The notes under the pieces were generated by a model, which did no database searches, was not told the origin of the DNA, and saw only the letters and a list, made by a program, of their open reading frames with translations. Positions 28,243-29,297 of a DNA stretch of 39,474 bases are shown piece by piece. Both the position numbers and the translations under genes were made by a program. The first letter of the stretch is position 1. The number at the start of each line of letters is the position of its first letter. Source of the stretch: a virus (Duplodnaviria > Heunggongvirae > Uroviricota > Caudoviricetes); IMG/VR virus record IMGVR_UViG_2861053794_000004, positions 1-39,474 of that record; one strand, given 5' to 3'.

Positions 28243-28686
28243 TTGAAGAGTGCTACAGTTTACACGGCAATGAGAGTTAAGCAATATGGCGGCGTACCTT
28301 CGGTAGAGGTAAGGTGTGATGATAAAAGAACCAAAGTTGTTACTGATTGCCTTCTGCTTTTTAAAAGCATAGACGAGGTAATTTTTATTGGCGCTGAAAA
28401 TCTTCACCCTTTGATAAAAGCAGAGATGAAGCAATGTGCAATCGATGCATTGGGAGTTGGGCAAGGCAAGTCTCAGATCGAAGCAAAGCAAATGCTTACA
28501 GAGCTTGAAAGCAGCAGACGTAGACAAGCAAGCAGGGCAAGACAATTTCACGATGCGATCGCAGGATGGAGCAGAGAGCTTATGTCTTTAAATGTAGACA
28601 TACAGAGAGGAATTGATGTTCCAACAATAAGGTCAAGAATAGGTACGATCGCAGAGAACATGGAAAAGCTAAATCCAAAGAAATAA
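28243..28686 (+). CDS. Unrecognised 147-aa protein in the N/rex position (gene A)
   Basis: TTG start preceded by AAGGAGG at 28231-28237; non-hydrophobic; Arg-rich patch SSRRRQASRARQ mid-protein; followed by strong terminator. Confidence 0.6.
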   Translation: MKSATVYTAMRVKQYGGVPSVEVRCDDKRTKVVTDCLLLFKSIDEVIFIGAENLHPLIKAEMKQCAIDALGVGQGKSQIEAKQMLTELESSRRRQASRARQFHDAIAGWSRELMSLNVDIQRGIDVPTIRSRIGTIAENMEKLNPKK

Positions 28687-28688
28687 TA

Positions 28689-28710
28689 ACCCGCTAAGGC
28701 GGGTTTTTTA
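28689..28710. terminator. Bidirectional rho-independent terminator between convergent genes A and B
   Basis: ACCCGC-TAAG-GCGGGT followed by TTTTTT on plus strand and TTATTATTT on minus strand. Confidence 0.8.
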
Positions 28711-28802
28711 TTACATAAATAACCGAATTTACTACCGCAAGCCTGGCGAACGCGGCATAACATGCAGAGGACGCCAGAAAATTAAAGGTAAATCTATATC
28801 AC

Positions 28803-29297
28803 TTATTTAGAAAATGCAGATTTAGGGAACAGATAGGAGGCGTTACACCTATGGCATCTCATCCTATGGTTAGAAGGTGGTGCAAATCCTTCGTATTGAA
28901 GTATGGATTTCACAGAAGATTCATAGCATTGAGCGCAAAGATAGTGCATTGGCTGACCGGTATTTGCCGATTTTTTGAGACGATAAACCACCGTAGCAAC
29001 AGTAGGAGTATACATCTCATAGTTTTTCTTTTCCTCTTCCCACTTAGAGGCTCGATTTATCTTTTCTTCAAGCTCAATGATCTTGTCCTTAGAAATCATC
29101 AAAAGCTCATTAAGTGACATTTGCTGCTGTTGGGCATCCATGAGCTTATCGACAAGTTCGTATGTTTTTTCTTTTACTGAGTAGTCTATTTGCATTTTCT
29201 GGATTTCCTTTACTGCGCCAACAGCACTCATCAGAGCACCTCCGGCACCAGAAACTGCATCTGTAATCCTACTTATTATTCCTTTTTCATCAGACAT
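28803..29297 (-). CDS. Unrecognised 164-aa coiled-coil protein with C-terminal CxxC...CxxC zinc ribbon (gene B)
   Basis: ATG at 29297 (listed ORF begins at a GTG at 29306); coiled-coil-like middle; C-terminal CAQC...CHRC; antisense ORF 28851..29117 looks like junk. Confidence 0.6.

Follow-up and report, generated by a model that had tools for sequence, protein, structure and literature searches.

A probable mosaic joint between the defence gene rip1 and a conserved PL-operon gene in an HK022-type immunity region

The window, the whole stretch of 39,474 nucleotides that was analysed, belongs to a P22-like E. coli podophage or prophage whose nearest relative is vB_EcoP-720R6. Its immunity region is of the HK022 type, with a CII homologue, a Cro-like HTH protein and a cI repressor that has HTH and S24 peptidase domains. 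Positions 27900–28223, which span the 3′ end of cI, oL/pL and putL, are 99.7% identical to HK022 DNA. Identity to HK022 and HK75 ends at ~28223, ~20 nt before the start of a gene that we call gene A; past that point HK022 and HK75 continue for ~120 nt more and then reach nun, whereas the window carries gene A instead. A second gene, gene B, converges on gene A from the opposite strand. Elsewhere in the window, the C-terminus of the small terminase (16525–16965, − strand) resembles that of Sf6 gene 1 (E 5e-11 to PDB 4DZJ/3HEF). The features of the segment are as follows.

27274–27981, + strand: cI repressor of HK022 type (Pfam Peptidase_S24 at 4e-19 and HTH_3; start taken from the PGAP annotation of E. 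coli YP3)
28056–28084, + strand: early promoter pL, TTTACA-17-CATCAT, with overlapping oL operators (an identical site is annotated as pL in HK75)
28100–28162, + strand: putL, a cis-acting antiterminator RNA (coordinates carried over from the HK75 annotation)
28170–28214, + strand: terminator-like hairpin followed by U5, between putL and gene A (−17 kcal/mol, z −3.4; common to HK022 and HK75)
28243–28686, + strand: gene A, 147 aa, family phrog_13686 (ORF with TTG start, Shine-Dalgarno sequence and conserved homologues)
28688–28711, no strand assigned: intrinsic terminator of the gene A module, CCCGC-loop-GCGGG plus T6 (hairpin stem-loop at 28688–28705)
28718–28810, + strand: 3′ remnant of N, overlapping the rip1 stop by 8 nt, and recombination joint (PGAP pseudogene in E. 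coli YP3)
28803–29297, − strand: gene B, or rip1 (ring interacting pore 1), a single-protein anti-phage defence gene of 164 aa from its ATG (match to PDB 9OOX)
29312–29322 and 29345–29355, − strand: direct repeat TACCCCTACAG, two copies 33 nt apart, just upstream of the rip1 start

The elements listed by a first-pass annotation of this segment are all present, namely both ORFs, the TTG start of gene A with its GGAGG Shine-Dalgarno sequence, the CxxC...CxxC arrangement in gene B and the hairpin between the two genes. Its placement of the pair in the immunity/PL region is borne out by the HK022-type cI, pL and putL directly upstream of gene A. The hairpin at 28170–28214 looks like a terminator that put-modified polymerase is to read through.

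The TTG start of gene A has AAAGGAGG 6–13 nt upstream, and it is supported by the conservation of residues 1–9 (MKSxxxYTA) among the homologues and by the use of TTG behind a GGAGG-type Shine-Dalgarno sequence at 31/40 homologous loci. The encoded protein is basic (pI 9.4, and 9.9 in the C-terminal half) and has no predicted membrane segment. The AlphaFold model (pLDDT 84, pTM 0.59) predicts a four-stranded β-sheet (residues 5–49) followed by helices at residues 56–72, 76–121 and 126–142. The long helix is the best-conserved part of the protein and bears the invariant motif SSRxRQASRARQFxDAIAGW, with the invariant arginines R92, R94, R98 and R100 falling in SSRxRQASRARQF. Homologues with 60–99% identity were found in Escherichia, Salmonella (MG40), Cronobacter, Enterobacter, Erwinia (phiEt88) and metagenomic contigs; the family is limited to Enterobacterales and is carried by 20 of the 5426 complete E. 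coli genomes. Pairwise dN/dS values against the window copy lie between 0.04 and 0.10, with synonymous sites saturated. These sequence comparisons show that gene A is genuine and is held under strong purifying selection.

Gene A has no relatives of known function. An exhaustive HMMER profile search of 1.84 billion representative proteins gave four matches, all of them from the small family of gene A itself or fragments of it (one full-length cluster, one fragment, one short form and one chimera). Pfam contains no match at E ≤ 1, including N_peptide and N36, and there was nothing in NCBIfam, no family in PADLOC-DB at E ≤ 1 and no match in a profile search of the PDB. A Foldseek search of the predicted fold against BFVD retrieved no relative (best E-value 0.04), and PHROGs places the protein in phrog_13686, a family of ‘unknown function’. 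HkaQ of HK620, which is also encoded after N, is unrelated to gene A by hhalign. Literature searches with hkaP, accession numbers and phrog_13686 yielded nothing on gene A, and its genomic regularity, described below, is as far as could be found unreported.

Two prophages carry damaged copies. In E. coli OkiPb01689 (L011, 3001–3448) and in an IMG/VR prophage (L044, 3001–3445), both E. coli prophages, gene A is frameshifted or truncated (4-nt insertion, 89-aa product); lysogen maintenance therefore does not require it. A tblastn search of plasmids detected gene A solely on 5.9-kb Salmonella Infantis circles, which are immunity-region fragments, and on no conjugative leading region. These circles (NZ_CP148796.1, 5873 bp, and 22 similar records) comprise nothing but a lambdoid immunity region with cII, cro, a repressor gene, a ParA-family gene, fumD, N, the gene A homologue and one more ORF, have no replication genes annotated, and may be excised or assembly-derived phage fragments.

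We then compared 42 gene A loci, comprising the window, GenBank phages, E. coli genomes, 33 IMG/VR contigs and one Erwinia genome. A PL antitermination device lies directly 5′ of gene A in all 42, in one of three arrangements.

21 loci: putL RNA ~80–100 nt upstream of gene A, with no ORF between
20 loci: N protein ending 2–84 nt upstream of gene A (several N subtypes; Pfam N_peptide/N36)
1 locus (L031): putL, then a Nun homologue, then gene A

In the N-type loci, the ORFs immediately preceding gene A match N_peptide/N36 with E-values of 5e-16 to 5e-6. In L031 (IMGVR_UViG_3300011739_000034, 2521–3441), putL, the Nun homologue, gene A and a terminator follow one another in series; this Nun homologue is 58% identical to HK75 Nun, and gene A begins 21 nt after it. 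A terminator-like hairpin of the CCCGC-loop-GCGGG-T6 type comes right after gene A in ~31/42 loci. One contig, which also has myovirus baseplate genes, encodes a divergent 106-aa form of gene A; there too a C-terminal remnant of N comes before the gene and the same terminator comes after it. In Salmonella phage MG40 (L003, 1092–2015), a 307-aa hypothetical gene, gp46, stands directly after the repressor and ends at a terminator, a position and size that we take to be typical of repressor-linked defence genes such as BstA.

The RNA device itself extends well past HK022. Upstream of gene A, putL is 95–100% conserved at 22 loci whose repressor/operator sets are of at least three kinds; among these loci is that of Erwinia phage phiEt88, where putL is conserved though the flanks have diverged and the gene A protein is only 63% identical. 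The coordinates compared were 28100–28162 in the window, 2858–2923 in L010, 2853–2916 in L004 and 2521–2573 in L031. Because putL is 95–100% identical behind unrelated repressor sets and in phiEt88, put-type RNA antitermination seems much more widely spread than HK022 itself. An Rfam scan of the window gave no match for putL, which has no Rfam model.

This survey changes the reading of gene A, which the first-pass annotation had set where lambdoid phages carry N or exclusion genes, at a site known for exclusion and defence morons. The identification with N was rejected: no N_peptide profile matches gene A, its N-terminus lacks the arginine-rich boxB-binding motif, and N is present beside it in 20 loci. 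Nun was rejected as well: the arginine-rich motif of HK022 Nun (...DRRRIARWEK...) and its C-terminal KKW are absent, the profile search contained no Nun-type protein, and in L031 a true Nun homologue is encoded directly upstream. Since gene A co-occurs with both, it is neither N nor Nun nor a substitute for them, and its location 2–84 nt downstream of N (20 loci) or Nun (one locus) points to transcription from pL together with them. The position is that of an early PL-operon gene and not of a prophage-expressed moron.

We read gene A as an early lytic gene of the PL operon that would be co-transcribed with N or put, its timing being judged from position alone. The transcript would start at pL, reach gene A after putL here or after N or Nun in the relatives, and usually end at gene A’s own tL1-like terminator, so that in N-type phages gene A would be present with N in the first transcript after infection or induction. 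HK022 put antitermination requires no phage protein, and ‘immediate-early’ therefore has no special meaning in the window. Gene A would act early in lytic growth, its long, conserved, Arg-rich helix contacting a macromolecule of host or phage, likely nucleic acid or an acidic protein surface. We favour an accessory early-lytic role because the gene occupies the first early slot, is under strong constraint, has a throttled TTG start and a basic Arg-rich helix, and is dispensable and patchily distributed.

Within this role, the leading candidates are counter-defence or host takeover, which we place well short of an even chance, and modulation of early transcription or antitermination, which taken singly is unlikely; the two are sub-cases of the accessory early-lytic role, and the estimates overlap. 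More tentatively than for the first of these, gene A may be a previously unrecognised early protein tied to the start of the PL transcript, either a modulator of elongation or antitermination (through RNA polymerase, Nus or Rho) or a first-expressed counter-defence protein. Either role would explain the first slot after N, Nun or putL, the invariant Arg-rich helix, the throttled TTG start and the lack of a relative among 1.84 billion proteins. Gene A sits in the first expressed slot of lambdoid PL operons, beside three different antitermination devices, and it is an open lead that is small, cheap and easy to test. If it acts on transcription or host immunity, it would be a new player in a very well-studied regulatory circuit.

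Another proposal makes gene A a factor in transcription elongation or termination that works alongside the antitermination apparatus, an accessory resembling N or Nun whose target would be RNA polymerase, Nus factors or Rho. It draws on the invariable position of the gene beside lambda-type N, P22/21-type N, putL or Nun, and on the basic C-terminal half (pI 9.9) with its four invariant arginines (R92, R94, R98 and R100). This adjacency, however, may merely reflect the ‘first slot after N’; moreover, put antitermination in HK022 works without a phage protein, gene A matches neither N_peptide nor N36 of Pfam, and most lambdoid phages lack gene A. A suggestive observation comes from a metagenomic contig (L012, 970–1491; ENA ERZ27281804 k141_99675), where a 98-aa ORF, P0047, joins the arginine-rich motif of lambda-type N (N36) to a gene-A-like core (residues 49–107). 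The contig is single and only 1.7 kb long, with a displaced C-terminal fragment of N just upstream of P0047, and the fusion may be a natural rearrangement or an assembly artefact; we dropped it as solid functional evidence for these reasons. Taken together, we consider that gene A is unlikely to be such a factor.

We likewise weighed a prophage-expressed superinfection-exclusion or defence protein that would stand in place of Nun. Gene A does hold the nun slot of HK022 and HK75 downstream of an identical pL–putL, the terminator-like hairpins on both sides would insulate it, and a weak TTG start suits a low-level constitutive protein. The spacing of 2–84 nt after N (20 loci) and of 21 nt after the Nun homologue (one locus), on the other hand, implies co-transcription with the repressed pL operon. 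A consensus promoter scan found no sigma-70-like site between pL and gene A, leaving pL as the sole upstream site, and only ~15 nt separate the hairpin at 28170–28214 from the Shine-Dalgarno sequence of gene A; the lack of a PADLOC match and of a membrane segment points the same way. The scan is insensitive, as it also finds nothing upstream of nun in HK75, where a constitutive promoter was reportedly described by King et al. in 2000. A weak internal promoter for gene A may thus have been missed. On balance, we regard a prophage-expressed exclusion factor as quite improbable, and return to gene A as an accessory early-lytic gene.

Gene B could be assigned directly. Counted from its ATG, which is also the start of the deposited Rip1 sequence (the program’s ORF call runs on to a GTG at 29306), the protein is identical to Rip1 of HK446 (PDB 9OOX chain L) at 163/164 positions (99.4%; phmmer E 1.4e-105), the sole difference being residue 94, Tyr here and His in HK446, and the gene B family profile matches 9OOX_L at 2e-83. 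The protein has a predicted long helical N-terminal half and a β-rich C-terminal domain, and so shows the two parts of the Rip1 fold, N-terminal amphipathic/long helices and a C-terminal ring-contacting domain. The pairs C121-x2-C124 and C148-x2-C151 are invariant in 23 homologues. Pfam, NCBIfam and PADLOC (2023) held nothing significant for gene B, and PHROGs lists it in phrog_1244, of ‘unknown function’. From its sequence, gene B is the already known Rip1, essentially the protein whose structure was solved.

The claim that both genes are novel consequently fails for gene B and may still hold for gene A, and the profile and structure searches that had been proposed led to Rip1 for gene B and to no relative for gene A. 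Gene B is no undescribed gene, given that the mechanism and cryo-EM structure of a 99.4% identical protein have been published. The suspicion that it is a defence moron in a sieB-like slot converging on N was nevertheless correct, and its HK620 homologue, hkaP, was already annotated as a ‘putative superinfection exclusion protein’. The contrary case considered at the outset, gene A as an N-family antiterminator and gene B as a housekeeping phage protein, does not apply, as gene A lacks an N match and gene B is a defence protein.

The rip1 allele occurs in 95 of the 5426 complete E. coli genomes (~1.8%), where it is always labelled ‘hypothetical protein’. Distant Rip1 homologues with 27–32% identity include hkaP of HK620 and, in Pseudomonas phages, D3112 orf25 and its counterparts from DMS3, JBD30 and MP38; orf25 (L006, 2962–3498) and the DMS3, JBD30 and MP38 homologues are still labelled hypothetical in public records. 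In HK446 the same gene, gp37, lies in the same place, converging on N and overlapping its 3′ end. This antisense orientation inside the PL operon is common to the window, HK446 and HK620, and the D3112 gene is antisense too. No rip1 promoter was recognised by the consensus scan, a low-power method that misses the HK75 nun promoter region. One copy of the repeat TACCCCTACAG falls inside a hairpin at 29307–29329 (pattern scan), and the repeat could serve rip1 as an operator or promoter element, or act as a tL-type terminator on the other strand. Gene B needs no discovery work and should be annotated as rip1, an identity that also explains HK620 hkaP and D3112 orf25.

A 2026 review (PMC13434031) summarises the work of Patel, McCarthy, Taylor et al. 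(2026, Nature 651:1060–1067). In its account, Rip1 is a prophage protein with no toxicity of its own, and the mutations by which phages escape it lie in the portal (Pseudomonas phages) or the small terminase (E. coli phages). By cryo-EM, an 11-mer ring of small terminase is encircled by 12 Rip1 monomers, whose C-terminal halves touch the ring and whose N-terminal amphipathic helices make the pore; this assembly lets dye out of liposomes and punctures cells, with the outcome that infected cells are lysed ahead of progeny maturation. Rip1 was found at the small/large-terminase hotspot of D3112-like phages (PMC13434031). Following that account, ring-shaped small-terminase or portal oligomers made by a superinfecting phage would cause ~12 Rip1 molecules to assemble via their C-terminal domains, and the N-terminal amphipathic helices would then form a membrane pore that breaches the inner membrane before progeny mature, resulting in abortive infection. 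We infer that rip1 is expressed from its own promoter and active in the present phage.

The segment between the two genes reveals how they came to face each other. The hairpin at 28688–28705 has 7 bp, five of them G-C (−11.9 kcal/mol, z −3.1), with a tail of T6 on the + strand and a poorer AUUAUUUCUU on the − strand, and it starts 2 nt past the gene A stop and 98 nt past the gene B stop. These distances indicate that it is clearly the terminator of gene A and weakly or incidentally that of gene B. The sole Rfam match, to STnc370, is sub-threshold (33 bits against a gathering score of 54) and is the terminator hairpin itself. In E. coli YP3, whose region is identical, PGAP annotates a pseudogene, ‘antitermination protein N, missing N-terminus’, between gene A and rip1. 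The last 24 codons of this N remnant match the C-terminus of HK446 N, and the 8-nt overlap with the rip1 stop is as in HK446. There, as in the usual rip1 arrangement, rip1 runs into the 3′ end of a complete N, and no hairpin is present. Homology to rip1-type (HK446-type) phages sets in at 28733, and that to phages with gene A but no rip1 reaches as far as 28743, which places the crossover within ~11 nt inside the tail of N. Recombination inside the 3′ end of N would have created the convergent layout, with the gene A terminator coming to lie 98 nt past the stop of rip1. What had been taken for a shared bidirectional terminator is a by-product of this joint and belongs to the gene A module, while the view that the two genes do not form one operon was right.

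The distribution of the two genes agrees with separate origins. The joint arrangement is found in one of the 5426 complete E. coli genomes (YP3) and in two IMG/VR contigs, and rip1 is present in 3/41 other gene A loci. Gene A is missing from 94/95 rip1-positive E. coli genomes, the joint arrangement is missing from 19/20 gene A-positive genomes, and the phage whose Rip1 was characterised, HK446, carries a complete N but lacks gene A. That the two nonetheless form a functional pair, with gene A for example as an early anti-Rip1 guarding the phage’s own lytic cycle, could appeal to their adjacency here, in YP3 and in the two contigs, and to the precedent of Tab and its lytic-cycle partner anti-Tab, but these genome counts, a Rip1 characterised from a phage without gene A, gene A homologues in Salmonella and Erwinia phages with no rip1 nearby, and an N pseudogene that marks recent recombination at the joint largely refute it and make it extremely unlikely. 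Because an N remnant lies between the genes and each is widespread without the other, they do not appear to be a system. We conclude with good confidence that the locus is a mosaic joint of two independent modules rather than a two-gene system: gene B is rip1, gene A would be a constrained early PL gene, and their layout would be the outcome of recombination in N.

Compared with the HK446 locus, which has His94 and an intact N, the present rip1 has Tyr94, a 3′ stump of N and a foreign terminator downstream, and it is carried by a P22-like podophage where HK446 is an HK97-like siphophage. A functional counterpart is Tab/anti-Tab of Pseudomonas phage JBD26, a prophage-expressed, antisense, single-gene defence against virion assembly proteins, in which Tab has its own promoter, blocks tail assembly via the tape measure protein and is paired with anti-Tab (PMC10884400). 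Tab occupies the same small/large-terminase hotspot as the Rip1 homologues of D3112-like phages; it has no sequence relationship to Rip1 (83 aa against 164 aa), and rip1 here is without an evident partner.

The sieB slot of lambda and P22 converges on N inside the PL operon. Gene B has the same slot and orientation, which is the reason for the putative-exclusion annotation of the HK620 homologue; Rip1 differs from SieB in that the two share no sequence similarity and that SieB is integral to the membrane, whereas Rip1 stays soluble until something triggers it. Gene A for its part takes the slot of HK022 Nun after pL–putL, the HK022 segment upstream of nun being replaced from ~28223 onward, but it has no similarity to Nun and lacks the N-terminal arginine-rich motif and the C-terminal Trp. 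The closest parallel in layout is the N–tL1 unit of lambda. In most N-type relatives gene A lies between N and a strong, tL1-like intrinsic terminator, and from this position its product would appear alongside N ahead of the onset of antitermination; lambda itself has no gene between N and tL1, and in the window putL replaces N.
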